32,000 nt of DNA from Candidatus Pelagibacter sp. HTCC7211 (GCF_000155895.1 NZ_DS995298.1:1320001-1352000); one strand, 5' to 3'. Positions 3,723 to 19,870 are shown, counted from the first letter of the stretch. The notes: generated by a model not told the origin, from the sequence alone. Numbers and translations: made by a program.

Positions 3723-5960
3723 TTATTTGCCAATACCAATTATTGTTAAGTCATCATCAAGAATATCGTTATTTTCTTTTATGCCTTTTTCAGATATTTC
3801 TTTTTTCAAACTTCTAAGTCGAATTTCTTCAGTTGCATCTTCTAATTCTTTTTTAAGTAAAGAATTTTGGTGTTTAATGATTAATTCTTTAACGCCACTA
3901 ATACCTATTTCTTCTTTTTTTTCATTCATGCACTCAGAAAAACCATCAGTGAAACAATAAATTCTACCTCCATTGAGTTTGAAGCTTTCTAATTTATATA
4001 CACTTTCATCTTTATGTCTTGTAACTGCTAATGGAACTGAACTAGATGGAAATTCCTTAAACTCTTTATCGTTTCTTAACAATGCTGGTTGATGTCCAGC
4101 ATTTGCAATTTCTACTAAATCTGATTTTAAATTATATCTTCCAACAATTGAAGTTATAAATGTACCTCTCGGATTTGTTTCGTTTAAATCATTATTCATT
4201 TCAAATAAAATTTCATTAGGTCTAAATTTTTGTCTCGCAAAAATTTTAAATAATGTGATAGCTTTTGCCATGACCATCCCTGCATTAACACCTTTACCTG
4301 ATACATCTGATAACGTGAAATAAACTTCATCATCATGAAGAAAAAAATCATAAAAATCTCCTGAAATTTCTCTTGCTGGAATATTAAGACCAAATATAGG
4401 ATAGTGATCCATATCTCTTTTTGGCATTAAACGTTTTTGAACATCCATTGCGAGCTTGATCTCTTGAGAAACTCTGTTTTTCCATTTATTTTTTTGTTTT
4501 TCAGTTTGCTCTAGTCTGTCCATTAAAACATTATATTGAGTTCCAATAATACCACTATCCGTGAAAGGATCTTGTGGAGCTCTATTAGAATAGTCATCTG
4601 ATTTAGCTTGTTTTGTCAAAACTTCTAACAATTCATGTGTATCGGTTGATGCATTATGTTCTGAAATATTAAGACCCAACTCTTCTTGAATTTTTCCAAC
4701 TCTTAATGGAAAAAAAGAATTGATAGTTTTAAAAATTATATAAGACCCAAAAAAACAAAAACTTCCAATTGAAACAATTCCAATTAATTGAATTAATAAT
4801 TGCTCTAATCTTGTTTTTTCAACACCCATCATTTCAAAATTTCCAAATATAGCAACAGCAATAGTTCCCCAAATTCCAGAAGCTAAGTGGACAGGAATCG
4901 CACTCACTACATCATCAATTTTAATTTTTTCTAACAATACAATTGTTGAACCTGAAATGATTCCACCAATGCTTCCAATTACAATTGCATCAGATGGATC
5001 TACATAAGCGCATGATGCGGTTATAGAAACCAATCCTGCAAGAGGACCTGTTATCATGAATAACGGTTCAGGTTTTTTTAAAACAATTATTCCCATTATG
5101 CTTGAAAAAATAAGACCAAAAGAAGCTGATAAAAAAGTATTAATTAAAATTAATGGAATTTTTAAATCCATTGCTCCATTAGCGCCTCCATTAAATCCAA
5201 ACCAGCCAAACCATAAAATTAAAGCACCAAGTGCAGCAATTGGAGTATTGCTACCCTGAAAGGTCTTACTTAAGCTATCTTTTCTAAATCTTCCTGTTCG
5301 ATTACCTACAACTAATAAAACTGCAAGTGCAATCCATCCACCAACTGAATGGACAACCGAAGCTCCTGCAAAATCCAAATAACCCAATTTTCCAAGCCAA
5401 CCAAATTTCTCTGTTGGATTTTCAAAGTTAAATGCCCAAGACCAATGACCAACAATAGGATAAAAAAATCCTGAAGCAAAAAATGTAATAATCACGTAAG
5501 AAAAAAACCTTAATCTCTCAGCAACTGCACCAGATATAATTGTTGCAGCTGTAGCAACAAACATTGCTTGGAAAACAAAATAAGTCTGATAGCCAGCAAC
5601 TTTTGTAGTAAAAAAGAAAAACTTATTGCCAAACAATCCAGATACACTAGTTCCATACATTAATGCAAAACCAAATGCCCAAAAAATTACAACTGCAATA
5701 CCAAAGTCAGTTACATTTTTAAGAGCAACGTTAATACTATTTTTGTTTCGAGATAACCCAGTTTCCAAACACATAAACCCTGCTTGCATCAGAAAAACAA
5801 GGATTGCACAAATTAAAAGCCAAAAGGTATCTAGATTTGCTTGAAGGATTGCATCTAAACGAAATTCTAAAGCAGTTAAAGCTCCTTTGTTGGTAAGCTC
5901 TAATTGCTTAATACTTGACTGCAGCTTATTAAGCAAAATCTGGGTTTCAGCCGCAGTCAT
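3723..5960 (-). CDS. ammonium transporter (Amt/MEP) fused to a C-terminal SpoIIE/PP2C serine phosphatase domain
   Basis: 745 aa, ATG start. The Amt core spans aa ~45-440, with signature LDFAGASVVHSVGG and the second pore His in AIPVHLASGIWG. An Amt-type cytoplasmic tail follows (PLRVGKIQEELGLNISEH). After a helical linker, aa 505-745 (nt 3726-4448) carry PP2C motifs ISGDFYDF, LSDVSGKGVNAG, ANAGH, FTDGF and DDDLTIIG. Confidence 0.9.
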   Translation of the reverse strand: MTAAETQILLNKLQSSIKQLELTNKGALTALEFRLDAILQANLDTFWLLICAILVFLMQAGFMCLETGLSRNKNSINVALKNVTDFGIAVVIFWAFGFALMYGTSVSGLFGNKFFFFTTKVAGYQTYFVFQAMFVATAATIISGAVAERLRFFSYVIITFFASGFFYPIVGHWSWAFNFENPTEKFGWLGKLGYLDFAGASVVHSVGGWIALAVLLVVGNRTGRFRKDSLSKTFQGSNTPIAALGALILWFGWFGFNGGANGAMDLKIPLILINTFLSASFGLIFSSIMGIIVLKKPEPLFMITGPLAGLVSITASCAYVDPSDAIVIGSIGGIISGSTIVLLEKIKIDDVVSAIPVHLASGIWGTIAVAIFGNFEMMGVEKTRLEQLLIQLIGIVSIGSFCFFGSYIIFKTINSFFPLRVGKIQEELGLNISEHNASTDTHELLEVLTKQAKSDDYSNRAPQDPFTDSGIIGTQYNVLMDRLEQTEKQKNKWKNRVSQEIKLAMDVQKRLMPKRDMDHYPIFGLNIPAREISGDFYDFFLHDDEVYFTLSDVSGKGVNAGMVMAKAITLFKIFARQKFRPNEILFEMNNDLNETNPRGTFITSIVGRYNLKSDLVEIANAGHQPALLRNDKEFKEFPSSSVPLAVTRHKDESVYKLESFKLNGGRIYCFTDGFSECMNEKKEEIGISGVKELIIKHQNSLLKKELEDATEEIRLRSLKKEISEKGIKENNDILDDDLTIIGIGK

Positions 5961-5972
5961 AATTAAATTTTA

Positions 5973-6311
5973 TTAGTCTACTAATTTTCTAGCTTCCTCA
6001 GCGTCATTGATAATTTTATCAACACTTACAACTTTGATAACTTCAAAACCAGTTCCAAGAATAGCATTTTTATAATCTTCTTCTGTTAAATTTGATTTAT
6101 CAGTAAAAGAAGAAATGGCTACACCTTCTGGCCATGATACCTTCACATCAGCATTAGGACTTGCTGCCTGAAGTGCTTTAGTCACCATTTTTTGACACTT
6201 AATACACATCATGCCATTTACTTGGGCTATTTGTGATTGAGCTGCAAAAACATTTGTAGAAAATAATACTAACAATAAAGTAATAAATATTTTTTTCATA
6301 TTTGCTTTCAT
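5973..6311 (-). CDS. periplasmic heavy-metal-associated (HMA, MerP/CopZ-like) domain protein
   Basis: 112 aa. Signal peptide (ITLLLVLFSTNVFA/AQ) followed by the HMA metal-binding motif VNGMMCIKCQKMVTKAL. Alternative start at Met5 (nt 6299). Only 12 nt upstream of the Amt-PP2C start. Confidence 0.65.
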   Translation of the reverse strand: MKANMKKIFITLLLVLFSTNVFAAQSQIAQVNGMMCIKCQKMVTKALQAASPNADVKVSWPEGVAISSFTDKSNLTEEDYKNAILGTGFEVIKVVSVDKIINDAEEARKLVD

Positions 6312-6402: not shown

Positions 6403-6696
6403 CTATTCTTCAGTGTCTTTTTTTTTCCAAATATAGAAAAATATATATGGAGATAGAGCGGGTACAATTCCAAACCAAAACCATTCATCCCATCTAAAAC
6501 TTTTATCTAAAGTTGGTGCTTTTAAACCATTCCACCAAGTTAAATAACCAATAAAAATTATCCAGCCCAAACTTGCTGTGATAAAAATTTTTTGTTTTTG
6601 TGAAAAGTCTTGTTTTGTTAATTTTAAAAAAAATTCTTTTATGTTTTCTAAATTCATGCCCTTAACACTTTGCTGGATCTCTTCGTAAAGAACCAT
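6403..6696 (-). CDS. small 2-TM membrane protein, unknown function
   Basis: 97 aa as tracked. Two hydrophobic, Trp-rich segments. The ATG at 6696 overlaps the upstream pilin 3' end by 35 nt. The ATG at 6657 (MNLENIKEFF, 84 aa) avoids the overlap and may be the true start. Confidence 0.45.
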   Translation of the reverse strand: MVLYEEIQQSVKGMNLENIKEFFLKLTKQDFSQKQKIFITASLGWIIFIGYLTWWNGLKAPTLDKSFRWDEWFWFGIVPALSPYIFFYIWKKKDTEE

Positions 6697-7108
6697 CAGC
6701 TGTTAAAGTAATATTGCACCCATTAGAATTATCTTCCTCGACCGCATAAATCTTATAATTTGAAGCATGATCTGCAACACATATTAAATAACCTGCTGTT
6801 GCTTTTTTAGGGCTTACATTTGGATCAATAATAGATTTTGCTCCACCAAGTAATTCATTTTCAATAGCTTCAGATGTTGCAATTGATGGCGTGCAAGATG
6901 ACCCTGTGCCTGTGTAATAAATTGAATTAACTGAATAATACTCTGTTTGACCAAGAGATATTTGTCTCATGATATTTTCAGTTGATTTTTTTTTTGTAGA
7001 AGAAACGTAGCCGCTATAACTTGTAATACCAATAGCAGCAATAATACCTAGAATTGCTACAACAACCAAAAGTTCGATAAGGGTAAACCCGGAACTTTTG
7101 GTTGTCAT
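6662..7108 (-). CDS. type IV pilin (second pilin paralogue)
   Basis: 148 aa. Class III prepilin signal MTTKSSG/FTLIELLVVVAILGIIAAI with Glu5. Four Cys in the C-terminal globular part (possible two disulfides), with a C-terminal Cys. Confidence 0.87.
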   Translation of the reverse strand: MTTKSSGFTLIELLVVVAILGIIAAIGITSYSGYVSSTKKKSTENIMRQISLGQTEYYSVNSIYYTGTGSSCTPSIATSEAIENELLGGAKSIIDPNVSPKKATAGYLICVADHASNYKIYAVEEDNSNGCNITLTADGSLRRDPAKC

Positions 7109-7124
7109 AAAATTTATTTTTTAA

Positions 7125-7583
7125 TTATTCAATAGTAACTGTGTTAGTCTTCAAGTCCTCACCATTGGCTGGACAACTTGTTATAGTCACTGTTGTTCCA
7201 TTATCATCAACACTTGTTTGACCCTCTGTTGTAGCATTGCAAGCAGACAGTGTTGTGGTTACAATTGCAGAACTAGCAGTTGCATAAGGGTTTTTAAACT
7301 CAGTTGATAATGCTTCGTTAGTTGCCTTTTTAACAGTTCCTGAACTTTTTCTTTGAGAACAGGTTAATTTAGTACCCATTACTGAACTTTCGCCTATTTC
7401 ACATTTTTTAAGTTCAGCTGCCACATATTTAGTAACTGCAGCCTGGTTAGATTTAACCGCTGATTTTTTTGCGCCCGCTGTGTAACCTGAGTATGCAACT
7501 ACACCTACGGCAGCTAGAATTCCGATAATTGCTACAACAACTAGTAGCTCGATAAGAGTAAAACCTTTATTATTTTTTTTCAT
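7125..7583 (-). CDS. pilA: type IV major pilin PilA
   Basis: 152 aa. Prepilin leader MKKNNKG/FTLIELLVVVAIIGILAAVG with Glu5. Four Cys. Thr/Ser-rich C-terminal half. First gene after the divergent promoter region. Confidence 0.9.
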   Translation of the reverse strand: MKKNNKGFTLIELLVVVAIIGILAAVGVVAYSGYTAGAKKSAVKSNQAAVTKYVAAELKKCEIGESSVMGTKLTCSQRKSSGTVKKATNEALSTEFKNPYATASSAIVTTTLSACNATTEGQTSVDDNGTTVTITSCPANGEDLKTNTVTIE

Positions 7584-7743: not shown

Positions 7744-8043
7744 ATGACTTATCAAGTTACAGAGGAAAATAATATTTCAACCGTATTTCTTAATGGTGAG
7801 ATCGATATGGACGTGACAGACAAAGCAAAGGACGTCATTTTGCCATTAATAGAAGCTGGTAAGGAAGTTCATATTAATCTTAAAGATGTTGAGTATATGG
7901 ACTCATCGGGTATTTCAGTGCTAATCGAAAGTCATCAAAAAGCAATGGAGCTTGGAACTAAAGTAACTCTAAAAGAAATCAGTAAATCTGTTCTTAAAGT
8001 AATTATGATGGCAAAACTAGAGCAGATCTTAAATTTAGATTGA
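7744..8043 (+). CDS. STAS-domain anti-sigma-factor antagonist (SpoIIAA/RsbV family)
   Basis: 99 aa. Conserved phospho-acceptor motif EYMDSSGISVL; Ser54 (nt 7903-7905) aligns by eye with SpoIIAA Ser58 in FMDSSGLGV. Confidence 0.9.
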   Translation: MTYQVTEENNISTVFLNGEIDMDVTDKAKDVILPLIEAGKEVHINLKDVEYMDSSGISVLIESHQKAMELGTKVTLKEISKSVLKVIMMAKLEQILNLD

Positions 8044-8453
8044 TGGATATTAAAGATCAAAAAGAGTTTCCCGTAGACTCGGCACAACTTAAAGAAGTAA
8101 GAAATTTTGCAAGAGGTTTATTTGATCAAGTTCCAGAATTTGAAGATAATAGAGAAGAATTAGTTTTAGCGTTAGCAGAAGCAGCTCAAAATATCGTCAA
8201 ACATGCTTATAGTGGTCAACCAAGTGGTGACACCATGAGAGTTGAAATTGAATATCAGGACAAAGTTTTAAAAATGGAATTATTTGATAAAGGCAAACCT
8301 GTTATCCCAGAAAATATTAAACCCAGAAAATTAACGGATATTAAAGCTGGAGGATTAGGTACTTTTTTTATCGGACAAATAATGGATGAAGTTGTTTTTA
8401 AAACTAATAAAGAAGATTGGGTAAATCACTTAATCTTAACCAAAAGATTTTAA
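8043..8453 (+). CDS. anti-sigma-factor-type serine protein kinase (SpoIIAB/RsbW family, GHKL ATPase)
   Basis: About 136 aa. N-box AEAAQNIVKHAY, G1-like FDKGKP, G2 box GGLGTFFIGQIMDEV. The track starts at TTG 8040. ATG 8043 gives a TGATG overlap with the STAS stop, suggesting translational coupling. Confidence 0.85.
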   Translation: MDIKDQKEFPVDSAQLKEVRNFARGLFDQVPEFEDNREELVLALAEAAQNIVKHAYSGQPSGDTMRVEIEYQDKVLKMELFDKGKPVIPENIKPRKLTDIKAGGLGTFFIGQIMDEVVFKTNKEDWVNHLILTKRF

Positions 8454-9691
8454 CTACCAATAATAGAACCAACGTTAAAGATTGGTGAATACATCGCAAT
8501 CATCAATCCACCGATCATAGTTCCCATAAAAACAATCATGATTGGCTCAATCAAACTCGACATATTGTCAACAGCAGTATCAAATTCTTCTTCATAGTAA
8601 GCTGATACTGAATTAAACATTTCATCTAAATTTCCAGTTTGTTCACCAACAGAAATTAATTGACTAAATGTTGCAGGAAAAACTGGTTCTTTTAAAAATA
8701 ATTTTGTTAAAGTGTCACCTGAGAATACTCCTTTTTTTACATTTTCTAATGCTTGTGTAACTACATCATTGTTACTTACTGATTTTGCAATCTCAATACT
8801 CTCTAATAAATTTACACCTGCAGCACTTAGATTTCCCATAATAAGAGAAACTCTTGCAATCAATGATTTTAAAATCATATCACCAAATACTGGCATTTTT
8901 AAAACTTGTTGATGCCATTTATATCTAACAGCTGGTATTTTAGTAGTTGTGTATTTAAAGATGATATAAGTAATAAGACATACAATACCAAGTGTAAGAC
9001 CGCCACTACCTCGCATAAAATTACTAGCAGTCATAATAACTGCGGTTGGTGTAGGAAGAGCTACACCCATTCCTTCATACATTTTTGCAAAAACTGGAAC
9101 AACTTTGATTAACATGAAAACCATCACAGTTATTGCAACTGAAAACATCACAACAGGATAAGTAAGAGCACCTTTGATCTTCTTTTTAACTTTTTCCCTT
9201 TTTTCAAGAGACTCTACTAATTTTAATAAGAACGTATCTAGTTTACCGCTGGCTTCACCAGCTTTAATTAAATTGATATAAACACTATCAAAAATCTTTG
9301 GATATCTCTCAAAACACTTAGATAAAGTAATCCCTCCCTCAAGGTTTTTTCTTACATCTTCAATAATTTCTTTCATTGTCGGGTGCTCTATTTGATCTCT
9401 TAACATCGTAAGTACATTTAAGATAGGAAGTCCAGCCTTAACCATGGTTGCAAATTGTTTTGAAAAAATCATCACATCTTCTGGTTTGACTGCTTTTTTA
9501 CCAAAAGAAAAACCTCCACCTTTTTTCTTTTCTTTTTCTGCTTTTTTCTTTTTAACTTTTGTAAGATTAGTAATGATTACTTTTTGCTCTTTAAGTTTAA
9601 ATGAAGCTTCCTCTTGATTGAGAGCTTCTATCTCACCTTCAATATATTTTCCTGCTGATATGCCTTTGTATGAAAATGTTTCTGCTGACAT
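8450..9691 (-). CDS. pilC: type IV pilus platform protein PilC (GspF family)
   Basis: 413 aa. Duplicated GspF domains (FSKQFATMVKAGLPIL... and ...FSQLISVGEQTGNLDEMF), 3 TM segments, C-terminal PIFNV. Convergent with the kinase gene, 4-nt overlap. Confidence 0.95.
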   Translation of the reverse strand: MSAETFSYKGISAGKYIEGEIEALNQEEASFKLKEQKVIITNLTKVKKKKAEKEKKKGGGFSFGKKAVKPEDVMIFSKQFATMVKAGLPILNVLTMLRDQIEHPTMKEIIEDVRKNLEGGITLSKCFERYPKIFDSVYINLIKAGEASGKLDTFLLKLVESLEKREKVKKKIKGALTYPVVMFSVAITVMVFMLIKVVPVFAKMYEGMGVALPTPTAVIMTASNFMRGSGGLTLGIVCLITYIIFKYTTTKIPAVRYKWHQQVLKMPVFGDMILKSLIARVSLIMGNLSAAGVNLLESIEIAKSVSNNDVVTQALENVKKGVFSGDTLTKLFLKEPVFPATFSQLISVGEQTGNLDEMFNSVSAYYEEEFDTAVDNMSSLIEPIMIVFMGTMIGGLMIAMYSPIFNVGSIIGS

Positions 9692-9698
9692 TTTTGAT

Positions 9699-11447
9699 TT
9701 ACTCCGAACTTAATACCCGGTCAAATTCTCTAAAATTTAAATCGCCAGTTAAAATTAATTCTCGACCCATATCTTGCATAGTTCTAAATCCTTCTTTCAT
9801 TGCAATTTCTTTAAGTTCAGGCGTTGTTGCTTTTCTTAAAATTGCTTCTTTAATAGGTTTAGAAACACTTAAAATTTCATAAATACCCATTCGACCTTTG
9901 TAACCTGAGTCTTTACATTGAGAACAACCTTCTCCCTTTTGAACTTTAGCTCTTGAAGCTTGTTCTACTGTAAAACCAAAATCAGCAAGTGCTTTAGGAG
10001 TAATATCTTCATCAGGTACTCTACAGTTTGGACAAGTTTTTCTAGCAAGTCTCTGAGCAAGAATTAAACTTACAGCAGCACTAATCAGATAATCTGGTGT
10101 TCCCATGTTTTGTAATCTAGTAATTGAACTTGGGGCATCATTAGTGTGAAGAGTGCTAAATACTAAGTGACCTGTAAGTGCAGCCTTCAAACCTATATCA
10201 ACGGTTTCTTTATCCCTCATCTCTCCAACTAGAATAATCTCTGGGTCTTGTCTTAAAAAAGATCGAAGTGCTCTTTGGAAATCATAACCAATATCATCTT
10301 TAATTTGAACTTGTCCAACTCCATCCAATTCATACTCAACAGGATCTTCTGCGGTTAAAATGTTTAAGTGTGGTTTAGATACCTCTTTTAAAATACTATA
10401 AAGTGTAGTTGTTTTACCAGAACCTGTTGGACCAGTAACCAAAACTAATCCTTGAGTACCATGAATTGCTTTTCTTAAATTTTTTAAATCTTGTTCTTCA
10501 AAGTTTAATTGTTCTAAACTAATATCTCCAGCATCTTTGTTAAGAACCCTCATTACAATTCTTTCATTAGTTGCTGTTGGCAGAATTGATAAACGAAGGT
10601 CGACAACTTTTCCATCTATTTTAAATGGAATTGCTCCGTCTTGTGGTAAACGTCTTTCAGCAATATCCAATTTACCCATAATCTTAAATCTTGTTACAAC
10701 CGCACCATAATTTGAGTGTAAAAATTTCGCAAAATGTTCTTGCTCTGTAAGAATTCCATCAAGTCTATATCTAACCCTTGAACTAAATCGATATGGCTCA
10801 ATATGAATATCAGACACTCCTGATTTAATTGCTTCTGCAACAACTGCTGTACTGAATTTAATTACATCAGATTCATTTTCAATTGCTTCTATATCCTCTT
10901 CAGGTTTTTCATCCAAAAGTTCAGCGCTTTCATCAACATCGTAATCAAATGTTTTGATTTTTTCTTGATTTGCCTGCTGAATTGATTGCATGGTAGTTTC
11001 ACCCTCTGCAGATAATCTGTCAATATGAGCTGAAATATCTGACAATTTTGCAGCATGAAGCTCAATATCTTTCTTGGTAATTGTTTTTAAGTTTCTCATT
11101 AAGCTTAATTTTGAACTATCTGGAATTGCAATATGTAAAACGTTACCCTCAATTTTAAAAGGAGCTATGAAATTCATGTTTATGTAATTTGAAGGTAGCA
11201 CAGACTTTATTTCATCTGAAATTTCAGAACTTGCTAAATCAGCTATATCTAATGATTGCTCTTTAACTAATAAATCTAAAATTTTATCTTCATCAGTTAA
11301 GTTTAATTCAAATACAGCATCAATTTGTGATTTATCACCATCAGATGATTTTTTTTTAATATCAATTAAATCTTTACCAGAAATTACATCTTGATCGATT
11401 AAGATGTTTATTAAATTAATTTCCGACTCTCTACTAATCTTGATCAA
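9699..11447 (-). CDS. pilB: type IV pilus assembly ATPase PilB (GspE family)
   Basis: 582 aa. Walker A VTGPTGSGKTT, Asp box, Walker B ILVGEMRD, His box STLHTND, tetracysteine zinc motif CPNC...CSQC. The tracked start is TTG overlapping the pilQ stop, so the start codon is uncertain. Confidence 0.94.
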   Translation of the reverse strand: MIKISRESEINLINILIDQDVISGKDLIDIKKKSSDGDKSQIDAVFELNLTDEDKILDLLVKEQSLDIADLASSEISDEIKSVLPSNYINMNFIAPFKIEGNVLHIAIPDSSKLSLMRNLKTITKKDIELHAAKLSDISAHIDRLSAEGETTMQSIQQANQEKIKTFDYDVDESAELLDEKPEEDIEAIENESDVIKFSTAVVAEAIKSGVSDIHIEPYRFSSRVRYRLDGILTEQEHFAKFLHSNYGAVVTRFKIMGKLDIAERRLPQDGAIPFKIDGKVVDLRLSILPTATNERIVMRVLNKDAGDISLEQLNFEEQDLKNLRKAIHGTQGLVLVTGPTGSGKTTTLYSILKEVSKPHLNILTAEDPVEYELDGVGQVQIKDDIGYDFQRALRSFLRQDPEIILVGEMRDKETVDIGLKAALTGHLVFSTLHTNDAPSSITRLQNMGTPDYLISAAVSLILAQRLARKTCPNCRVPDEDITPKALADFGFTVEQASRAKVQKGEGCSQCKDSGYKGRMGIYEILSVSKPIKEAILRKATTPELKEIAMKEGFRTMQDMGRELILTGDLNFREFDRVLSSE

Positions 11448-12994
11448 TCTAATACCCTAGGTGCTATAAATATTAATAACTCTTCAAGCTTATCTTCCTT
11501 CTTTTTGTATTTTAAAAGATTTCCAATTACAGGAACATTTCCTAAGCCTCCTGGAACTTGTTCTTTAGCTTTTGATATATTATTAGATTTTATTCCACCG
11601 ATTACAACTATATCTCCATCTGCAACTAAAAGTTTTGTAATTATTTCCATTTTTGTAATTGGAGGTTCGTCTTGTGAAGTGTCGGCATCATCGTTATTTA
11701 CTTGTATATCTAATAAAACGTTTCCATCTCCAATAATACTTGGTGTAACTTGAAGTTTTAAAGCAGCTTCTTTAAATGAAGTTGAAGTTGTGCCTTCTGA
11801 TGTTGTTTCATAAGGAATTTCTTTACCTTGTGTAACTGAGGCAGGCTGATTATTTATAGTAAAAACTTTTGGATTTGAAATTGTCTCGACCATGCCCATT
11901 TTCTCTAAAGCTGTAATTTCAGCTTTTAAAACTGCAGAACCAGTCTTCTTTAATATACCAATACCGCTAGTAGCACCTGTTGCTGCAAAATTTGTAATTT
12001 GATCTTTTGCAACTTGAGCAAGAGCAGCAGAAGTATCATCGAGTGTTCCAGCGGAACTTGTTGAACCAACTATACCACCGATTTGCTCATCATTTCTTTT
12101 ATAATAACCGCCTAACCTTGTGCCTAATTGTTTTTCAAATTCAGATGTAGCTTTTACAACGAATGCTTCGATTAAAACTTGCTCTGTTTTAATATCAATT
12201 TCATTTAAGACTTTATCAACTGTATCAAGATCTCTTTCTTTACCTCTAACAATAATTGATCTGGTTGCTGTTTCTTCTGTAATTTTTATTGGAGAATATG
12301 CATTTTCACCTGTGCTTTTAAACAACTCTTCAATTGTAGATTTTGCTAAAGCTGGTGAGATATAATAAAGTCTAAATATTTCTGAGATAATTGGTTCAAC
12401 ACTATCTTCTAACTCTACTTTGTTTTTAACAGCTTGAGCTCTCTCTGATTTATAAGTTTCTTGAGATGTTAATGTTTCAGGTGAATGAACTCTTATTAAA
12501 TTACTATTTACATCTATATCAGATGCATAATTTTTCATATCTAATAAAGCTTGAAAAGCTTTATCCCATGGAACGTCTACTAACTCTGCAGAAATTGCAC
12601 CAGCAACTTCATCTCCAACTAAAACGTTAATTTCACCAATTTTTCCCATCAATTTCATAGTCTCTTTATAATCAAGATTTTTAAATTTTAGGGTTACTCT
12701 TTGTTTTAAAGATTTATATTCATCAGGAATTAACAAGTAATTTCTTGTAGTTTCTGAAGTAATCTTTTTTCTTTTTCTTTGAACTTTTTTATTCCCTGGT
12801 ACTGGTTTAGGGCCCATCTCAAGAGTTTTAGCAATTTCAGCTTTACCCAAAGCTTTCATATCTTTTTTTATTAAAGGTGTATTATGCTTAAATGGCTGAT
12901 TATATTTTTTTGCAAATTGAGTATTAGCACAACCACTTAGAACAAATCCTAAAATTATAACAATCGACAAATTAAAGAGTTTTTTAATATTCAT
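11444..12994 (-). CDS. pilQ: type IV pilus secretin PilQ
   Basis: 516 aa. Lipoprotein-type signal (LGFVLSG-C). Lys-rich linker, N-domains, and a C-terminal secretin domain ending VPGGLGNVPVIGNLLKYKKKEDKLEELLIFIAPRVL. I recognise no AMIN domain. Confidence 0.9.
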   Translation of the reverse strand: MNIKKLFNLSIVIILGFVLSGCANTQFAKKYNQPFKHNTPLIKKDMKALGKAEIAKTLEMGPKPVPGNKKVQRKRKKITSETTRNYLLIPDEYKSLKQRVTLKFKNLDYKETMKLMGKIGEINVLVGDEVAGAISAELVDVPWDKAFQALLDMKNYASDIDVNSNLIRVHSPETLTSQETYKSERAQAVKNKVELEDSVEPIISEIFRLYYISPALAKSTIEELFKSTGENAYSPIKITEETATRSIIVRGKERDLDTVDKVLNEIDIKTEQVLIEAFVVKATSEFEKQLGTRLGGYYKRNDEQIGGIVGSTSSAGTLDDTSAALAQVAKDQITNFAATGATSGIGILKKTGSAVLKAEITALEKMGMVETISNPKVFTINNQPASVTQGKEIPYETTSEGTTSTSFKEAALKLQVTPSIIGDGNVLLDIQVNNDDADTSQDEPPITKMEIITKLLVADGDIVVIGGIKSNNISKAKEQVPGGLGNVPVIGNLLKYKKKEDKLEELLIFIAPRVLD

Positions 12995-13454
12995 CTGCCT
13001 CTCTTATCTGGTTGTTGAAATCAATAATAATAAAAGATTTATCTTCTTTTTCGAAGATAGCCTCTGTTAATCTTAAATCTATAAATTTTATTTTTCCTAA
13101 ATACTGATTGAGATTTAAAGTAATAACGTCTCCTGATGTATTTGTTAAACTTATATAACTTTCATCTTTACCTGAAATTAAACCTGATAATTTAAAATTA
13201 TACAAACTCATTTCGTCTCTCTCTTCACCAGTTTCTGGATTTACTGTTGAGCTTCCCATTCCTTCATTACCAGCAAACGGATCGTTTAAAGGAACTTCGT
13301 CCTCATCTACTTGGCTTTGTTTGCTTTCAATTTCTTTTGTAATTTCTTTTGCTTTTTCTACTAACTCAGTATTAGTGCTATGATTATCTGCAAAAACATT
13401 TGTGTATGATAGTAACAGTATGGTTATGATTAAAAATTTCTTAAAAGAATTCAT
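12984..13454 (-). CDS. pilP: PilP-like pilus assembly protein
   Basis: 156 aa. Signal peptide (no lipobox Cys), acidic linker, C-terminal beta-domain (LYNFKLSGLISGKDESYISLTNTSGDVITLNLNQYLG). Position between pilO and pilQ. Overlaps both neighbours (14 nt and 11 nt). Confidence 0.6.
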   Translation of the reverse strand: MNSFKKFLIITILLLSYTNVFADNHSTNTELVEKAKEITKEIESKQSQVDEDEVPLNDPFAGNEGMGSSTVNPETGEERDEMSLYNFKLSGLISGKDESYISLTNTSGDVITLNLNQYLGKIKFIDLRLTEAIFEKEDKSFIIIDFNNQIREADEY

Positions 13455-14091
13455 CGGGTATACCTACTATTGTTAATTCTCCTTGTGCAATAATCGCTCC
13501 AGTTGAATCATTTTGTACAATACTTATAGTCTCTTTGTCAAAGTTTAACATTTTGCTAGATTTGGCTATAGATCTCTTAAACTTGATATATCCAAGGAAA
13601 TTGCCTTTAATCTCGTATTCAACAGGTATTTTATAATATGAAATATCTGTTTTTTTCAATAGCTCCTCTGCTTGTTGAGCTACTCCACTTTTTAAAACTG
13701 GTTTAGGTTTTTTCTTTTGAATTTTAGAAATAGTTAAACCATTCACACCAGCATACTTACTTAAGCTCTGATACAATCCTTCAACTTCTTCTTTAGAATG
13801 AAATAACGTAGAACTTTTTTTAAACTCAGGCTCAAGTTTTTTTAATCTCTTTTTATTTAGAATAATTTCATTTTCAAATTGAACAATTTCGTTTTGCTTT
13901 AAAACTTTTTCATCATACAGGGCTTTTTTATTTTTAACGATTGGATTTAAAATAGCGTAATAACCAATTAAAAAAATAATAATTGCTGCAAAACCAATCC
14001 CAAATTTTATTAATGTTTTTTTATCAATTGCTTTAAGCTTTTCTTTTAAATCACCAACATTAATATTTTTTAAATCTACATTTAAATCCAT
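13441..14091 (-). CDS. pilO: PilO-like bitopic pilus alignment protein
   Basis: One TM (FGIGFAAIIIFLIGYYAIL), then a coiled coil, then a C-terminal alpha/beta domain, in the pilN-pilO-pilP position. The tracked start 14112 is TTG. ATG at 14091 (MDLNVDL...) forms a TAATG overlap with the pilMN stop and is preferred. Confidence 0.6.
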   Translation of the reverse strand: MDLNVDLKNINVGDLKEKLKAIDKKTLIKFGIGFAAIIIFLIGYYAILNPIVKNKKALYDEKVLKQNEIVQFENEIILNKKRLKKLEPEFKKSSTLFHSKEEVEGLYQSLSKYAGVNGLTISKIQKKKPKPVLKSGVAQQAEELLKKTDISYYKIPVEYEIKGNFLGYIKFKRSIAKSSKMLNFDKETISIVQNDSTGAIIAQGELTIVGIPDEFF

Positions 14092-15806
14092 TATGCGCTC
14101 TCCAATATACAAGCTACAACAAACCCTTTCATTGTGGGAGCATTTTGCGATTGCCCATCAGGAAGAGTCATTGTTGCTAATGATGCTTGCTTAATTAATT
14201 TTTTATTATTTAAATTACTTATTAATTTTAATATATCTTGGTCACTAAATGCTGAGCCTTTTATAACAATTTGACTTGAGCCATTATACTCAACTGATTC
14301 AAACTTTACTCTTTTTGGCACTGCTGAGGCAATTTGAGCCAATACTCTAAAACTTGCAGTTTTATTTGACTTAATCGATTTACTAATCTTGAGTGACTTT
14401 AATATTATACCAACATCTTTTTCTAGTTTATTTTTTTCAAGAGTTCTAAGCTCATGAGTTTGAACGATTTCATCATAATCTACTAACTTTCCATTTAATT
14501 CTTTGATTTGCCAAAATGACAATCCAAACAATGCTATATAAATTAATGAAACAACTCCAATTACACCTTTGAATGCAAAATTTGAAAACACTTTTGCTTT
14601 CTTTTGAGCCATCATGCTGTCTCTATTTGGAAGAAGGTTAATATTTTTTACTGCTGTTACAAATTTGTAATAACCAAAAACATCTAACTTTCTAAATGCT
14701 AAACCAATCACTGTTGAGAAGTATGATCTATTTTGATAATTAACACTTTCCTCTAATTGTGCAGGAACTTTAATTTCTTTAATAGGATCTAATAAATCAA
14801 AACCAGTATTAGCTAAACTTTTTCTAAAAGTTTCAAGATAAGTATCAACATTAGTTAAATTTGAGACAACTTTTAAATTTCTAATTCTTTTTTCATATTT
14901 TGTTTCAAAATCTTGTATCGCTTGTTTAACTTGGGTTACATATCTTCTAACCAAAGCATCCATATCTTCTTGGTTATCAGAATTTAAAAGCGTATTTCTG
15001 TCTTGGCCTCTTATAAATATATCTGTAATAATTGGATTATTTTCATATAAAATCATTACATAATTTTCATCCAATCCAAATTCTAGAACTGCAGTAAGAT
15101 TACTCTCTTCAATTGATCCACCAAGTTGATTGATTTGGTCAACAGCAGATTTAAGTGCAAAACATTTTACATCAATAATAACTGCATTAAGACCACCTTT
15201 TTTAATTATCGATGTGTAACTATTAATATCTGAAAGTTTTGAGGCAACGAACAAGATATCCATAGTATTGCCAGTGGTATCTCTATTAATAACTTGATGA
15301 AAAACTGAGTAATCATTTAGATTATCAGTAAGTTGAACTAAATTTTCCCAAAGTGAATCAGTATCAATTGCTTTATTTAATTCTTCGTCAGTCATTAAGG
15401 GTGCAGTCACTACTCTTATGATTGCACTTGTAACTGGAATGGCTATTGCAGCATTTGATGTTTGTATTTTAGATTTTTGTAAAGCAATTTGTAATTGTTC
15501 CCCATACTTATCTGGTTCATCTAATACGTTTGAATTCGCATCTGCATCCTCAATTTTATGAGTAAAAAATTTTTCTAAAACCCACTTATTTGATTTGTCA
15601 GTCGATAATTGAGCTAATCTTATTTCTGTGGGGGTTAGCTCTACTCCAACAATTTCTTCACCTTGAACAGCAGATTTTCCTAACCTGTTTTTAAAGAATT
15701 TACTAAAAAATCCTTCTTTCTTTTTTTTATCTTGAGCTTGTGGGACGGGTGTTCCCTCATCACCTTTCGGTTTTTTTTTAAAAAGATTTGCAAAAGGATT
15801 TTTCAT
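14091..15806 (-). CDS. pilM: fused PilM (actin-like ATPase fold) - PilN protein
   Basis: 571 aa. After a basic ~50-aa N-terminus, aa ~50-378 look like PilM (IVGVELTPTEIRLAQL..., IIDVKCFAL). The hallmark PilN N-terminal motif INLLP is internal (aa 389-393, nt 14628-14642). It is followed by the PilN TM (GVIGVVSLIYIALFGLSFW) and a periplasmic domain. Confidence 0.8.
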   Translation of the reverse strand: MKNPFANLFKKKPKGDEGTPVPQAQDKKKKEGFFSKFFKNRLGKSAVQGEEIVGVELTPTEIRLAQLSTDKSNKWVLEKFFTHKIEDADANSNVLDEPDKYGEQLQIALQKSKIQTSNAAIAIPVTSAIIRVVTAPLMTDEELNKAIDTDSLWENLVQLTDNLNDYSVFHQVINRDTTGNTMDILFVASKLSDINSYTSIIKKGGLNAVIIDVKCFALKSAVDQINQLGGSIEESNLTAVLEFGLDENYVMILYENNPIITDIFIRGQDRNTLLNSDNQEDMDALVRRYVTQVKQAIQDFETKYEKRIRNLKVVSNLTNVDTYLETFRKSLANTGFDLLDPIKEIKVPAQLEESVNYQNRSYFSTVIGLAFRKLDVFGYYKFVTAVKNINLLPNRDSMMAQKKAKVFSNFAFKGVIGVVSLIYIALFGLSFWQIKELNGKLVDYDEIVQTHELRTLEKNKLEKDVGIILKSLKISKSIKSNKTASFRVLAQIASAVPKRVKFESVEYNGSSQIVIKGSAFSDQDILKLISNLNNKKLIKQASLATMTLPDGQSQNAPTMKGFVVACILESA

Positions 15807-15955: not shown

Positions 15956-16972
15956 ATGTTTGAAAAATTAGAAGAGCTTGCAAAAAATAATAAGAAGATT
16001 TCAGATTTTCATATTAGATCTGGATCTCCTTTAGCATACAGACAAACAGGTGAAATTATAAAAGTAGCTGACACAAATGTTACTGCTCAAGATTTAAAAG
16101 ATTTAATATCGATGAACTGTAATGAAGCTGAGACTGCAAGATTTAATGAAACTCACGAACTAGACTCAGCTGTAATGTTAAGTGGTTTAAGATTTAGAGC
16201 AAATTTTTATAAAACAATTAATGGTCCAGCTGCTGTTCTTAGAAGAGTTGAAAGTAAAATTCCAGATATGGATCAATTTAATTTACCTCAAGCATTATAT
16301 GATATCGTAGATTTTCATAAAGGTTTAGTTTTAGTAACTGGACCAACTGGCTCAGGAAAATCTACAACTCTTGCAGCGATCGTAAATGAAATTAATAAAA
16401 CTAGAACTTCAAATATTATAACTGTTGAAGATCCAGTAGAATTTATTCATAAAGACAATCAAAGTATTGTCTCACACAGAGAAGTTGGAAAACAAACTCA
16501 ATCATTTTCAGCAGCTTTAAAAGCAGCATTAAGAGAAGACCCTGATGTTATCTTAGTTGGAGAAATGAGAGATCTTGAAACAATCAGTTTAGCTTTAACA
16601 GCTGCTGAAACAGGACACTTAGTTTTTGGAACTTTGCACACAAGTGGTGCACCAAGTACCATCAATAGAATTATTGATGTATTTCCTCCTGAACAACAAG
16701 AACAAATCCGTGCGCAAATTTCAACTTCATTAAAAATGGTAGTTACTCAAAGATTACTTAAAACTAGAGATGGTCAAGGTAGAGTTGGTGCATTTGAAAT
16801 AATGAAGTGTACTCCACCAGTTCAAAACTTAATTAGAGAAGCAAAAATTCATCAAATTCCAAGTATCATGCAAACAGCAGTTAGAGATGGAATGATTACT
16901 ATGGAAAAATCTCTGGAGGAATTAGTTAAATCAGGTAAAATAGATCCAGGTGCAGCAAAATCAGGACATTAA
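15956..16972 (+). CDS. pilT: twitching-motility retraction ATPase PilT
   Basis: 338 aa. Walker A VTGPTGSGKST, Walker B ILVGEMRD, His box GTLHTSGA, and a PilT-type C-terminal helix motif VQNLIREAKIHQIPS. Confidence 0.95.
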   Translation: MFEKLEELAKNNKKISDFHIRSGSPLAYRQTGEIIKVADTNVTAQDLKDLISMNCNEAETARFNETHELDSAVMLSGLRFRANFYKTINGPAAVLRRVESKIPDMDQFNLPQALYDIVDFHKGLVLVTGPTGSGKSTTLAAIVNEINKTRTSNIITVEDPVEFIHKDNQSIVSHREVGKQTQSFSAALKAALREDPDVILVGEMRDLETISLALTAAETGHLVFGTLHTSGAPSTINRIIDVFPPEQQEQIRAQISTSLKMVVTQRLLKTRDGQGRVGAFEIMKCTPPVQNLIREAKIHQIPSIMQTAVRDGMITMEKSLEELVKSGKIDPGAAKSGH

Positions 16973-17666
16973 AGGTTTTACTCTTTTAGAATTATTGGTT
17001 GTAATTTCACTTGTTGCAATCATCTCAGCAGTTGCATATCCAAATTTTTCATCATGGAAAAAAGAAAGAGAAGTAAGATCAGCAACAGAAAAAATTGCTG
17101 GTATGATTTCAAATGTTGCAACTCAAACACAAAGAGGAAATTTTTCTTACTCTCAATTTTGGGTTCTACCCGTGCCAAACCAAAGCACCGTTTTTTTTAC
17201 TAAAGGAATGAAAAAAAATAATTTTACATCACTAATTAACTCTGGAGCGACACCAACTTGTAGAAGAGTTCAAAGTGGTCACTGGGATAGTTTAAATGAT
17301 AAAAAAATAAATATCATGGGAACTACATTTAGAGATTATTATGAAGTTTATGATCCAGAGTCTGGTATTGATAATATTGAAGTTGCAACACACTTAAGTC
17401 TAGATTCTGCTATTTGTTTTGGAACTAATGGAAGTTACTATAAAGCTGTTAATGGTTTATCAAAAGGAAGTAATACTAATATTAATATAGAGGGCGCACC
17501 AACTGCTAATTACATAATTATCTGCACTTTAGATAATGCTAAAGCATTTGGTAATAAATGCCCAAGAAAATTAGGGCTTGAAAGACCAGCATATTTGGTA
17601 AAATGGTCAAGATTTGGTAACGTTACCAAATATAAATGGAGTGGAAGTGATTGGAATAGACAGTAA
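16950..17666 (+). CDS. minor pilin, GspH/FimT/FimU-like
   Basis: 238 aa. GTG start overlaps the pilT 3' end by 23 nt. Prepilin signal (M)QQNQDIKG/FTLLELLVVISLVAIISAVAYPNF with Glu5. Confidence 0.72.
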   Translation: MQQNQDIKGFTLLELLVVISLVAIISAVAYPNFSSWKKEREVRSATEKIAGMISNVATQTQRGNFSYSQFWVLPVPNQSTVFFTKGMKKNNFTSLINSGATPTCRRVQSGHWDSLNDKKINIMGTTFRDYYEVYDPESGIDNIEVATHLSLDSAICFGTNGSYYKAVNGLSKGSNTNINIEGAPTANYIIICTLDNAKAFGNKCPRKLGLERPAYLVKWSRFGNVTKYKWSGSDWNRQ

Positions 17667-18258
17667 AAAAATAAAGCAAAAAGGGATTACTCTTATAGAG
17701 GCTTTAATTTCAACAGCAATTGTAGGCATAGGTTTTATAGCTGTATTTCAAATGGTTAACTATTCAGTTACCTCAATAGATGTGTCTGGTGAGAGGACAA
17801 AAACAAATTATTTATCCTCAATGATTGCTGAAGATTTAATCGGAGATCGATTTACTCAAATTAAAGTTGGTGGCACTGATAAAAAGATTTATGAGTATTT
17901 AGCAGATAATACTAAGCAAAATAAATATGCTTGGAAAAGAACCCCCTCATTAAATTCAAATAAAAAATGTAAGCAAGAAACAGGAAGTCCTTATAAAACT
18001 AGTGATGTCACTATTACTAATAAAGAGCACAAATGGAATCATAGATTTTCAAAAAGAATTAAATGTCGAGGGGTTAAAGATATTAAAGAGTTAAAAGTTT
18101 ATGAAAGCTGCAGAAATAATGTCAAAGTTGATGGAAAAACTAGAGTTAATTGTCATTATAGAAATCAATTCCTTTGGAATAAACATTACTTTGGCCGTAT
18201 GGAAGTAAAATTAAATAACGGTAACAAGAGTAAAGTTTTATATTTCCGAATAAAATAA
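17614..18258 (+). CDS. pilV: minor pilin PilV-like
   Basis: Prepilin signal ...KQKG/ITLIEALISTAIVGIGFIAVFQM with Glu5. The tracked start is TTG 17614. GTG at 17641 or 17647 would give a more typical short leader, so the start is uncertain. Confidence 0.7.
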   Translation: MVTLPNINGVEVIGIDSKKIKQKGITLIEALISTAIVGIGFIAVFQMVNYSVTSIDVSGERTKTNYLSSMIAEDLIGDRFTQIKVGGTDKKIYEYLADNTKQNKYAWKRTPSLNSNKKCKQETGSPYKTSDVTITNKEHKWNHRFSKRIKCRGVKDIKELKVYESCRNNVKVDGKTRVNCHYRNQFLWNKHYFGRMEVKLNNGNKSKVLYFRIK

Positions 18259-19052
18259 TGAAAAAGAAAAATTCATCAATAGCTGGTGTAACTTTAGTAG
18301 AAATATTAATTGGTATCGTCATATCAATGATCATGATGGCAGCAATGTTCACATCTTATCAAGCGGTAAACAATAGCTATTCACAAGTAATAGACCGAGC
18401 AAAGATTAGTCAAACTGGTCGAAATATATTAGGGATGATTGTTAAAGACATTAGATTAGCAGGGTTTAAATATTTTGATGATATCAGTAAGACACCAACA
18501 AACTATGTTCCGATTTATATCACTAAAGCTTCTGGTACTGGATGTGATAAACTTGATATAATGTACTCTGATCGAAGAGTAAAACCTGGATCCTCTCCTA
18601 AAACATATGAGTACACGACTTATAAAATTACTTATGAATGCAAAGCATCTAACATTGTTGATAAAAAAACAAAATTAAAAATAAATGCATTTGCAATTTA
18701 TAAATCAAAAAGTAAATGGAGTGGAAGTAATTGGGTAGCTCCAGCAACTTCTACTGATGATTTAATTTATAAAGATGAAATGATTGTTGATCATGTTCAA
18801 GATTTCATTTTGCTTCCAATTGATGAAAAGGGAAAGATAATTGATCCAGCACCAACTACTTTAACCGGTAGTAATAAAATTAAAGTAGTTGATATAATGA
18901 TGTCGGTTAGATCACAAAGTCAATTTTATAAAAAAGATAAATCATTTGAAAGTTTATCTTTGGGTAAAAAAAGCTCTAAACAATTTAATGATAGATTTTT
19001 GAGAGAACAAATTATTGTTTCTGCTCATACAAGAAATATGGGGCTTCAATGA
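18258..19052 (+). CDS. pilW: minor pilin PilW-like
   Basis: 264 aa. Leader MKKKNSSIAG/VTLVEILIGIVISMIMMAAMF with Glu5 and a PilW-like N-terminal helix (...GRNILGMIVKDIRLAGF). TAATG overlap with the pilV stop. Confidence 0.7.
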   Translation: MKKKNSSIAGVTLVEILIGIVISMIMMAAMFTSYQAVNNSYSQVIDRAKISQTGRNILGMIVKDIRLAGFKYFDDISKTPTNYVPIYITKASGTGCDKLDIMYSDRRVKPGSSPKTYEYTTYKITYECKASNIVDKKTKLKINAFAIYKSKSKWSGSNWVAPATSTDDLIYKDEMIVDHVQDFILLPIDEKGKIIDPAPTTLTGSNKIKVVDIMMSVRSQSQFYKKDKSFESLSLGKKSSKQFNDRFLREQIIVSAHTRNMGLQ

Positions 19053-19795: not shown

Positions 19796-19870
19796 AGTTT
19801 TATGAGACCTATAATGAGTATTAAATTAATAGACCAATAATCAAAAAATTATTATGATAATCAAATTATA

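Follow-up and report, generated by a model that had tools for sequence, protein, structure and literature searches.

How does a cell without the usual nitrogen regulators perceive ammonium? This question is raised by one gene in a 32,000-nucleotide (nt) stretch of DNA (the window; G+C content about 30%) from Candidatus Pelagibacter sp. HTCC7211 (GCF_000155895.1, NZ_DS995298.1:1320001-1352000). The organism belongs to SAR11, a clade that outnumbers all other bacterial clades in the surface ocean. SAR11 bacteria possess neither GlnB, GlnK, and GlnD nor NtrBC (Smith et al. 2013), and nitrogen regulation without PII and NtrBC is a question from that study on which the gene bears. It encodes a protein of the ammonium transporter (Amt) family that continues into a PP2C-type phosphatase of the PPM family. 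Based on its sequence, its structural model, and its gene context, we concluded that this Amt-PP2C protein is probably an ammonium receptor whose PPM phosphatase output acts in a STAS/RsbW partner switch. The open reading frame (ORF) and its parts are the following, with residues given in amino acids (aa):

3723..5960, minus strand: Amt-PP2C ORF with ATG start, 745 aa, comprising a predicted receptor module, a helical linker, and a PPM phosphatase
4647..5831, minus strand: predicted Amt receptor core, aa 44-438, 11 transmembrane helices (from PDB and Foldseek matches and residue mapping)
4428..4646, minus strand: linker, aa 439-511 (aligns with the HAMP-like linker of Sd-Amt1; DSSP of the model)
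3726..4427, minus strand: PPM/PP2C domain of the SpoIIE/RsbU type, aa 512-745 (Pfam SpoIIE, motif alignment)

A preliminary description of this DNA, made from the sequence alone, had reported a single uninterrupted 745-aa ORF with an intact Amt core and a complete phosphatase domain. Our analysis confirmed the ORF, and every Amt and phosphatase motif quoted there was found in place. These are the family signature LDFAGASVVHSVGG (aa 195-208, with D196 and H204), the second pore-histidine motif AIPVHLASGIWG (aa 354-365, with H358), the cytoplasmic C-terminal region of the Amt part PLRVGKIQEELGLNISEH (aa 418-435), and the phosphatase motifs GDFYD (534-538), DVSGKG (552-557), TDG (671-673), and DDD (735-737). 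In hidden Markov model scans both domains scored far above the Pfam cut-offs, with Ammonium_transp (PF00909) covering aa 47-438 (E = 7e-107, 358 bits, cut-off 23.2) and SpoIIE (PF07228) covering aa 543-741 (E = 4e-28, 99 bits, cut-off 25). The NCBIfam model TIGR00836 amt matched with 381.7 bits (cut-off 343.3). An AlphaFold2 model of the 745-aa protein had a mean predicted local distance difference test score of 85.6. Conservation was assessed on 188 copies, consisting of the window protein and 187 full-length SAR11 copies from metagenome ORFs and database clusters; among them are copies of a second, 717-type paralogue.

The closest relatives of the Amt part, in sequence and in fold, are two proven ammonium receptors. 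A phmmer search against all PDB chains returned Sd-Amt1 of Shewanella denitrificans as best match (8qj3, E = 1e-125, query residues 44-500, i.e. through the linker), followed by Ks-Amt5 of Kuenenia stuttgartiensis (1e-83), Af-Amt1 (1e-55), and E. coli AmtB (1e-33). The best Foldseek matches of the model were 'Receptor Sd-Amt1' in both its ON and OFF states (TM-score 0.95, root mean square deviation 1.8-1.9 Å), and next came 'Sensor Amt Protein' 6eu6, which is Ks-Amt5; TM-scores to solved Amt structures ranged from 0.86 to 0.96. The receptor class has been defined by a lateral two-ion site, N1/N2, with residues Q22, E29, N45, D48, F49, T104, and S107 in Sd-Amt1 (Pfluger et al. 2024, PMC11152129). 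All seven equivalents in the window protein (Q59, E66, N82, D85, F86, T140, and S143) are identical to those of Sd-Amt1, and E. coli AmtB carries T, Y, V, T, F, G, and V at these positions. The relay residues F62, K81, and Y155 likewise correspond to F25, K44, and Y119 of Sd-Amt1. The N1/N2 and relay residues, the twin-His pair, the Phe gate, and W175 are invariant in all 188 copies.

The pore is conserved almost throughout. The twin-His pair H204/H358, which the preliminary description had considered intact, is accompanied by a Phe gate formed by F134 and F256. Aligned with E. coli AmtB, residues F107, W148, D160, H168, F215, and H318 are kept as F134, W175, D196, H204, F256, and H358, respectively. 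Among the E. coli residues that the preliminary description had named for comparison, F107, W148, H168, and H318 were thus retained and S219 was not, its position being occupied by Ala260 (Ala in 175 and Ser in 13 of the 188 copies). Family profiles, the 11-helix fold, the twin-His pair, the Phe gate, and the vestibule Trp place the protein in the Amt/Mep/Rh family, with the vestibule Ser replaced by Ala260. The N1/N2 ligand set and a cytoplasmic transducer fused via a helical linker place it in the ammonium receptor class of Ks-Amt5 and Sd-Amt1. Taken together, the Amt part looks like an Sd-Amt1/Ks-Amt5-type ammonium receptor rather than an ordinary transporter and is a predicted sensor, as the preliminary description had suspected.

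The published pattern for the receptor site, QX6EX15NX2D[F/T]X54-60TX2[S/T], did not match the window protein when applied literally. All specified residues are present between aa 59 and 143, and the pattern fails due to a one-residue loop deletion relative to Sd-Amt1, which shortens the spacer to 53 residues. The whole SAR11 family is missed by the spacer X54-60 for this reason (X53), and a spacer of 50-62 matched 102 of 150 representatives. Judged from the alignment, the mismatch is a matter of a slightly too narrow pattern and not evidence of non-membership.

Compared to Sd-Amt1 (an Amt-HAMP-GGDEF protein; 8qj3, 8qj4, 8qpf; PMC11152129), the window protein shares 48% identity over the Amt core, the N1/N2 ligands, the relay residues, the fold, and a homologous linker up to the start of the output domain. 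It differs in its output, a PPM serine phosphatase instead of a diguanylate cyclase, in its proposed downstream partner, a STAS/RsbW switch instead of c-di-GMP, in an N-terminal extension of about 40 aa, and in two pore residues, Ala for the vestibule Ser (S225 in Sd-Amt1, S219 in E. coli) and Thr304 for N269, which narrows the exit in Sd-Amt1. Ks-Amt5 (an Amt-histidine kinase; 6eu6; PMC5764959), second best in sequence and fold, likewise has a receptor-type core with an N1/N2 site and carries Thr at the position of Thr304. In contrast to the window protein, it uses a DHp/CA kinase as transducer, with no HAMP-like segment in between, and it has the extra N2 ligands Gln-24 and Thr-51. The counterpart of Gln-24 in Sd-Amt1 is a Gln that does not act as a ligand, and Thr-51 is replaced by Phe in both Sd-Amt1 and the window protein. 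We had considered the exit residue as a discriminator between sensor and transporter and dropped it, because Ks-Amt5, a non-transporter, has Thr there as well; Thr304 therefore does not settle the matter.

The linker was longer than the approximately 50 aa that had been estimated previously. According to DSSP of the model it comprises about 75 aa: residues 440-454 are helical, a loop follows, and an unbroken, confidently modelled helix of 44 residues (468-511) leads into the PPM fold; the alignment with Sd-Amt1 spans the linker, reaching chain residue 465. The segment H435-D535 has the same length, exactly 101 residues, in all 188 copies, and these include the paralogue, which is only about 50% identical. 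In the best heptad register, 69% of the a/d positions are hydrophobic compared to 34% overall. RsbU is switched on when a coiled coil in its linker dimerises the phosphatase domains (Baral et al. 2025), and a model for coiled-coil-linked PPM phosphatases holds that sensors are exchangeable among PPM, histidine kinase, and GGDEF outputs (PMC12143880). Invariant length, heptad bias, and the 44-residue helix fit such a coiled-coil-linker, phosphatase-dimer mechanism.

The phosphatase domain belongs to the RsbU/SpoIIE type of PPM/PP2C enzymes by profile and by the acidic motifs GDxxD, DxxGxG, TDG, and DD. In an alignment with 12 relatives all motifs of this type (GDFYD, DVSGKG, AGH, TDG, and DDD-T) are kept, and the motif residues are D535, D538, D552, G555, H623, D672, G673, D736, and D737. 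All of these are invariant in the 188 copies except D538, which is Ser in 13 copies of the 717-type paralogue. As claimed previously, the acidic metal-binding motifs are complete (D535, D552, D672, D736, and D737), and by its conserved motifs the domain is predicted to be catalytically complete. A search of the PDB with the single PP2C sequence found only RssB and Rv1364c; with a profile, the structures of Rv1364c, SiaA (6k4e), SpoIIE, and RsbX were matched. The match to the NCBIfam SiaA model was weak and partial (E = 0.0015). A PPM phosphatase would be a third output class of ammonium receptors, beside the histidine kinase of Ks-Amt5 and the diguanylate cyclase of Sd-Amt1, and such an output exchange is of the kind proposed by the 'exchangeable toolkit' model for coiled-coil-linked signalling enzymes.

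Candidate partners of the phosphatase are encoded nearby:

7744..8043, plus strand: STAS anti-anti-sigma-type protein, 99 aa, with Ser54 in YMDSSG (PF01740 and TIGR00377 above cut-off)
8040..8453, plus strand: RsbW/SpoIIAB-type serine kinase (HATPase_c_2, PF13581, 77.5 bits, cut-off 27.4)

The STAS gene starts 1784 nt from the start of the Amt-PP2C ORF, in agreement with the 1.8 kb given in the preliminary description, and the kinase gene overlaps its stop codon. The best PDB match of the STAS protein was RsbV (6m36_B), with the D-S site aligned. D53-S54 aligns with the D-S phospho-site motif of SpoIIAA, whose serine we take to be Ser58, and with the equivalent site of RsbV. The predicted phospho-acceptor serine is kept, as is the whole YMDSSG motif in the 35 SAR11 STAS copies examined, which include both STAS paralogues. 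The kinase weakly matched the structures of SpoIIAB and RsbW and scored below the RsbW and SpoIIAB equivalog cut-offs, and we therefore regard it as a family member and not an orthologue. Of the elements of a partner switch, a phospho-acceptor STAS protein and an adjacent RsbW/SpoIIAB-type kinase were thus found.

Within SAR11 the arrangement is constant. All 23 metagenome loci that reach more than 2.6 kb upstream have STAS and RsbW genes, and all 36 that reach more than 1.3 kb have pilin genes upstream. At 10 places an identical STAS protein was found, and the 743-745-aa gene was in the same position at all 10. In loci with the 716-aa paralogue alone, the paralogue sits in the same slot.

As gene order in SAR11 is conservative, we examined relatives outside the clade. 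At 6 of 10 non-SAR11 loci, from unrelated lineages, a kinase and a STAS-like gene were in the same operon as the Amt-PP2C gene or fused to it. One locus (P0122) encodes two STAS proteins followed by Amt, SpoIIE, and HATPase_c_2 domains in a single polypeptide. Others encode Amt-PAS-SpoIIE-HATPase_c_2 with a STAS gene overlapping the stop codon (P0125), Amt-GAF-PAS-SpoIIE-HATPase_c_2 with STAS downstream (P0128), and the gene orders Amt-PAS-SpoIIE, RsbW, STAS (P0126) and RsbW, STAS, nucleobase permease, Amt-SpoIIE (P0168). In Coleofasciculus (L177, 6001-11738), Amt-PAS-SpoIIE is accompanied by CHASE-SpoIIE, an slr1658-family (SiaB-like) kinase, and a protein of the slr1659 superfamily (STAS/SiaC-like). 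At one further non-SAR11 locus a STAS gene lies 5 kb from Amt-PP2C. In a profile search, both Amt and SpoIIE were present in 120 of the 120 best clusters, and an RsbW-type kinase was fused in 47 of them. These kinase fusions provide the strongest evidence that Amt-PP2C proteins are, as predicted from domain and gene order, input phosphatases of STAS/kinase switches. The preliminary description had proposed that the phosphatase passes its signal to the STAS protein. An association of the two is supported by SAR11 synteny and by the fusions and operons elsewhere; as sole input the Amt-PP2C protein did not stand, since the window holds genes for two more such phosphatases, CHASE2-PP2C and GAF-PP2C.

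Two of the non-SAR11 arrangements have features of their own. In Coleofasciculus, much as in the SAR11 layout, an Amt-phosphatase is paired with an extracytoplasmic CHASE-type phosphatase, and in a non-SAR11 genome (GCA_947456915.1; L095, 3585-8169) the operon order RsbW, STAS, xanthine/uracil permease, Amt-PP2C directly ties the switch to a nucleobase, i.e. nitrogen-source, transporter.

The remaining genes of the window to which we refer are the following:

5973..6311, minus strand: HMA-like secreted protein, 112 aa, with GMMCIKC (CxxC) motif (Pfam HMA below cut-off)
6403..6696, minus strand: ORF97, Trp-rich predicted membrane protein, 97 aa (no family match; conserved in the array)
6662..7108 and 7125..7583, minus strand: two type IV pilin genes (GFTLIELLVV N-termini; N_methyl domain in orthologues)
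8450..15806, minus strand: pilC, pilB, pilQ, a 156-aa ORF, pilO, and a pilM-pilN fusion (Pfam labels)
15956..24558, plus strand: PilT-like ATPase, N_methyl minor pilins, PilX_N-like ORF, and 1384-aa ORF
27705..29717, minus strand: CHASE2-PP2C, 670 aa (Pfam CHASE2, E = 5e-50, and SpoIIE)
29714..30475, minus strand: prepilin peptidase PilD (Pfam A24_N_bact and Peptidase_A24)
30652..31944, plus strand: GAF-PP2C, 430 aa (Pfam GAF_2 and SpoIIE)

The window thus holds three sensor phosphatases, one STAS protein, and one RsbW-type kinase inside a type IV pilus super-cluster. The Amt-PP2C gene is the last in a same-strand array of pilin, pilin, ORF97, HMA-like, and Amt-PP2C genes with gaps of -35 to 91 nt, and the STAS-RsbW pair is divergent from the pilins. 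The CHASE2-PP2C and GAF-PP2C genes are at the far end of the pilus cluster. The former lies directly downstream of pilD with a 4-nt overlap, and in 8 metagenome loci a 426-aa homologue of GAF-PP2C is instead encoded directly downstream of the Amt-PP2C gene.

Based on these findings we propose the following mechanism. Ammonium bound at N1/N2 would reposition the linker helices and switch the phosphatase, probably via a phosphatase dimer beneath the Amt trimer, a mechanism proposed for Sd-Amt1 and RsbU. Ammonium activates the transducers of both Sd-Amt1 and Ks-Amt5, and by analogy it would turn the transducer on in SAR11, too. The phosphatase would remove the phosphate that the RsbW-like kinase places on Ser54 of the STAS protein, and free STAS would capture the kinase, which would then release its target, or would itself engage one. 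RsbU and RsbP both act on RsbV; similarly, Amt-, CHASE2-, and GAF-PP2C may converge on one STAS-RsbW pair, with inputs from ammonium, from a CHASE2 ligand outside the cytoplasm, and from a GAF ligand inside it. Given that the genes lie within a pilus cluster and that the pilin array closes with the Amt-PP2C gene, the likeliest output would be pilus biogenesis or pilin expression via a sigma-independent switch. Taken from gene position only, the pilus is a tentative assignment: the link of ammonium to pilus function made in the preliminary description comes from gene position, and no target of the RsbW-like protein was identified for it. That the three phosphatases together set the STAS state and that a sigma-independent switch thereby gates the SAR11 pilus, for example for DNA uptake as a nitrogen source, is a doubtful though specific proposal. 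Type IV pili of SAR11 have been suggested to aid DNA uptake in nitrogen-poor water, although their role was called unclear (Freel et al. 2025), and the finding bears on the question of their function and control.

The proposed pathway resembles known systems to different degrees. It has in common with RsbU/RsbP-RsbV-RsbW of B. subtilis a PPM phosphatase after a regulatory helical linker, a STAS D-S site, a HATPase_c_2 kinase, and several sensor phosphatases per STAS, a convergence that we propose here from the genes. Unlike in that system, the sensor would be an integral-membrane Amt trimer instead of a soluble N-terminal or PAS domain, no sigma-B-like target is encoded nearby, and the SAR11 system is embedded in a pilus cluster. 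The SiaA-SiaB-SiaC(-SiaD) system of P. aeruginosa likewise has a membrane PP2C with helical linker, a STAS-like phosphoprotein, and a dedicated kinase; its output is sigma-independent, and the cyanobacterial slr1658/slr1659 pair is a related system. In contrast to SiaABC, kinase and STAS of SAR11 belong to the classical RsbW/RsbV type and there is no diguanylate cyclase partner. In canonical AmtB-GlnK systems GlnK (PII) docks at the Amt C-terminal region, which is background and not evidence here. AmtB-GlnK resembles the SAR11 protein in that an Amt protein is coupled to nitrogen signalling at the cytoplasmic face; it differs in that E. coli AmtB lacks the N1/N2 ligands, and in SAR11 the signal would run from Amt to the attached enzyme and not from PII to Amt. 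No glnK is adjacent to the SAR11 gene, and no PII-like or glnK ORF was found flanking it or elsewhere in the window ORF list and scans.

Cyanobacteria have PII. The Amt-PP2C fusion was also found in filamentous cyanobacteria, Leptospira, SAR324, Acidiferrobacterales, and Chloroflexota, and its presence in cyanobacteria and Leptospira means that it does not mark the loss of PII. The preliminary description, which had the signal run without PII, was right for SAR11 (Smith et al. 2013) but does not extend to a general correlation of the fusion with absence of PII. The Amt-plus-linker module (query residues about 42-490) recurred in more than 140 clusters of 500-1800 aa in an exhaustive representative search, and 11 of the best 150 clusters had a PP2C domain. 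A scan of genome contigs with the full-length protein was dominated by the generic Amt pattern WFGWFGFN; among the matches listed were 5 SAR11 loci, and the named non-SAR11 loci among them were Amt proteins with other output domains and without PP2C.

Several points weigh against a receptor that signals to STAS. Plant AMT1 transporters also carry the N1/N2 signature, which is therefore no proof of a pure sensor, and Thr304 in place of N269 of Sd-Amt1 leaves transport possible. The HTCC1062 orthologues were expressed at constant abundance under nitrogen limitation (Smith et al. 2013), which is not strong counter-evidence because a sensor can function without a change in its amount. Synteny among SAR11 genomes is high, and neighbourhood within the clade is weak evidence alone; outside it, no STAS or kinase gene was found within 6-8 kb at 3 of 10 loci (two Leptospiraceae and P0127). 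The two other PP2C proteins of the window could be the real STAS phosphatases, and no sigma-factor domain or RsbW target was found among the window ORFs scanned. A parallel between the numbers of STAS and Amt-PP2C genes, suggested by HTCC1062 (two and two) and the window (one and one), was rejected, as two loci (L009 and L012) have two STAS genes with one Amt-PP2C gene and six metagenome loci have two Amt-PP2C genes with one STAS gene. Finally, the steps of the mechanism come from sequence, model, and gene-context computation.

The partner switch may be real and its output global rather than the pilus, for instance a programme for stress or stationary phase or a sigma factor whose gene lies elsewhere. 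Classical RsbW proteins bind sigma factors, no target was identified here, and the non-SAR11 Amt-PP2C loci are not beside pilus genes. In addition, a partner switch of the alphaproteobacterium Rhodobacter capsulatus is reported to have a pleiotropic phenotype. However, the SAR11 STAS-RsbW pair is divergent from the pilins and abuts pilC, all three phosphatases flank pilus genes with CHASE2-PP2C even overlapping pilD, SAR11 has very few sigma factors, and sigma-independent switches such as SiaABC exist, whose phosphatase SiaA is matched by that of the window. We consider a global output possible but rather unlikely.

A second alternative holds that the protein is a working ammonium transporter or transceptor whose phosphatase regulates the transporter itself or a metabolic enzyme and not STAS. 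For example, it could relieve inhibition by dephosphorylating the cytoplasmic C-terminal region of an adjacent subunit, as the PP2C ABI1 does on plant AMT1. This would agree with pore residues that are intact up to the twin-His pair, with an exit Thr less bulky than the Asn of Sd-Amt1, with the presence of proven plant transporters among the N1/N2-signature proteins, and with the known PP2C control of AMT1 in plants. Yet Ks-Amt5 has the exit Thr and does not transport, the nearest relatives are the two proven receptors, and no Hanks-type kinase able to phosphorylate the Amt C-terminal region was found in the window. Furthermore, the fused RsbW-type kinases and adjoining STAS genes in other phyla point to STAS as substrate. 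We regard a self-regulated transporter as unlikely.

Equally improbable in our judgement is an ammonium sensor whose substrate lies elsewhere, with the STAS-RsbW pair served by CHASE2- and GAF-PP2C and the adjacency reflecting conserved gene order. There are three PP2C genes per single STAS, the number of Amt-PP2C copies varies between one and two without a change in STAS, the 716-aa paralogue is reported as a flexible-island gene, and the Leptospira fusions have no STAS nearby. Against this stand the RsbW-type kinases and STAS-like genes fused or in operon at 6 of 10 non-SAR11 loci and the position of the gene as last in the pilin array, 1.8 kb from STAS, at every locus; moreover, several phosphatases per STAS are normal in partner switches, with RsbU and RsbP on RsbV as an example.

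The weakest alternative, two separate genes joined by an assembly or frameshift error, draws on just two contigs obtained with a split gene (L164 and L185, the latter an error-ridden long-read assembly in which many other genes are split, too) and is already refuted by the contig, junction, and proteomic data. Both domains were present in all 120 best protein clusters, with lengths of 743-746 aa except for one cluster of 683 aa. Hundreds of 743-745-aa clusters, 88-99% identical, came from marine metagenomes, single-cell genomes, and a closed Pelagibacter genome, and a metagenome scan with the C-terminal half as query added 80 further independent contigs. No insertion or deletion occurs between H435 and D535 in any of the 188 copies, so that the junction, for which the preliminary description had considered such an artefact, is sound. 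Proteomics has detected both orthologous proteins, SAR11_0049 and SAR11_0050 (Smith et al. 2013). The intact gene in hundreds of independent contigs and the indel-free junction indicate that the fusion is real.

The domain content and a proposal as sensor are already known. A SpoIIE Pfam domain was noted in two Pelagibacter Amt proteins (McDonald et al. 2010), and the 716-aa paralogue, a flexible-island gene, was proposed as ammonium sensor under the name 'Amt-GI5', with SAR11_0049/0050 cited (Molina-Pardines et al. 2025). In the data of the latter study the fusion seemed exclusive to SAR11, with no other such phosphatase domain, and "no cognate transducer" could be found. The novelty implied by the preliminary description thus did not hold for the architecture, which was in print in 2010 and 2025; a characterised Amt-PP2C or SAR11 partner switch was not found in the literature searched beyond these domain-content notes. 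That literature also held no earlier identification as Sd-Amt1-type protein with complete N1/N2 site, nor of the STAS/RsbW partners, and no mention of the two extra sensor phosphatases, the fused-kinase relatives, or the wide distribution.

With the sensing site of two structurally characterised ammonium receptors fully conserved, and with Ser54 of STAS and the RsbW-type kinase as candidate transducer where the 2025 study stated that none could be found, the domain annotation becomes a defined biochemical hypothesis for an ammonium-sensing route. The doubtful extension to a switch that gates the pilus would, if true, connect nitrogen to pili by a type of signalling route that has not been described for any organism. 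Among the carriers of the fusion, Leptospira and filamentous cyanobacteria can be cultivated and are genetically tractable.

The second SAR11 paralogue has 716-719 aa (745 aa in L136), is about 50% identical, and is variably present (e.g. L001, 12342-14492); loci listed with it are L001, L122, L132, L136, L157, L167, and L171. It follows the 745-type gene in HTCC1062-like genomes, but several metagenome contigs have it between ORF97 and the HMA-like gene; these variable slots fit the description as flexible-island gene. The paralogues differ at two pore positions, aa 260 and 304 (nt about 5181-5183 and 5049-5051), with Ala260/Thr304 in the 745-type and Ser/Leu in the 717-type (175/13 and 174/13 in the 188 copies), a possible sign that the two differ in ligand access or affinity. 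A second, 94-aa STAS paralogue lies beside the first in three loci (L001 7787-8071, L009 8497-8781, and L012 5873-6157, all on the minus strand); it keeps YMDSSG, has a different C-terminus (…KVLAMA[KR]KFL), and its presence is uncorrelated with the number of Amt-PP2C genes. Several Leptospira Amt-SpoIIE proteins (P0340, P0349, and P0353) are named 'guanylate cyclase' in NCBI records, apparently a misannotation inherited from related Amt-fusion proteins.

Scans of the region 3200-8600 gave 27 promoter-like matches compared to 26 in shuffled sequences, which is uninformative in such AT-rich DNA, and a single terminator-like site inside the ORF; an Rfam scan of the window found no RNA family. 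The HMA-like gene ends 12 nt upstream of the Amt-PP2C start and encodes a signal-peptide-like N-terminus and a MerP/CopZ-like motif. GMMCIKC is kept in 58 of 58 homologues, the gap to the Amt-PP2C gene is 12-19 nt, and the gene always precedes the 745-type and never the 717-type copy; its product may serve the receptor as periplasmic metal- or redox-binding accessory. ORF97 shares 35 nt with the 3' end of the second pilin gene, and nearly every SAR11 locus has it between the pilin genes and the Amt-PP2C genes. PilM and PilN form one 571-aa fusion (14091-15806, minus strand), which all related SAR11 loci share. The ORFs at 24780-25772 and 26331-27671 could not be annotated, and that at 25772-26344 has a FecR domain. 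The 1384-aa ORF (20404-24558, plus strand), without Pfam match, ends the minor-pilin operon and, by its position, could be a PilY1-like tip or adhesin protein.

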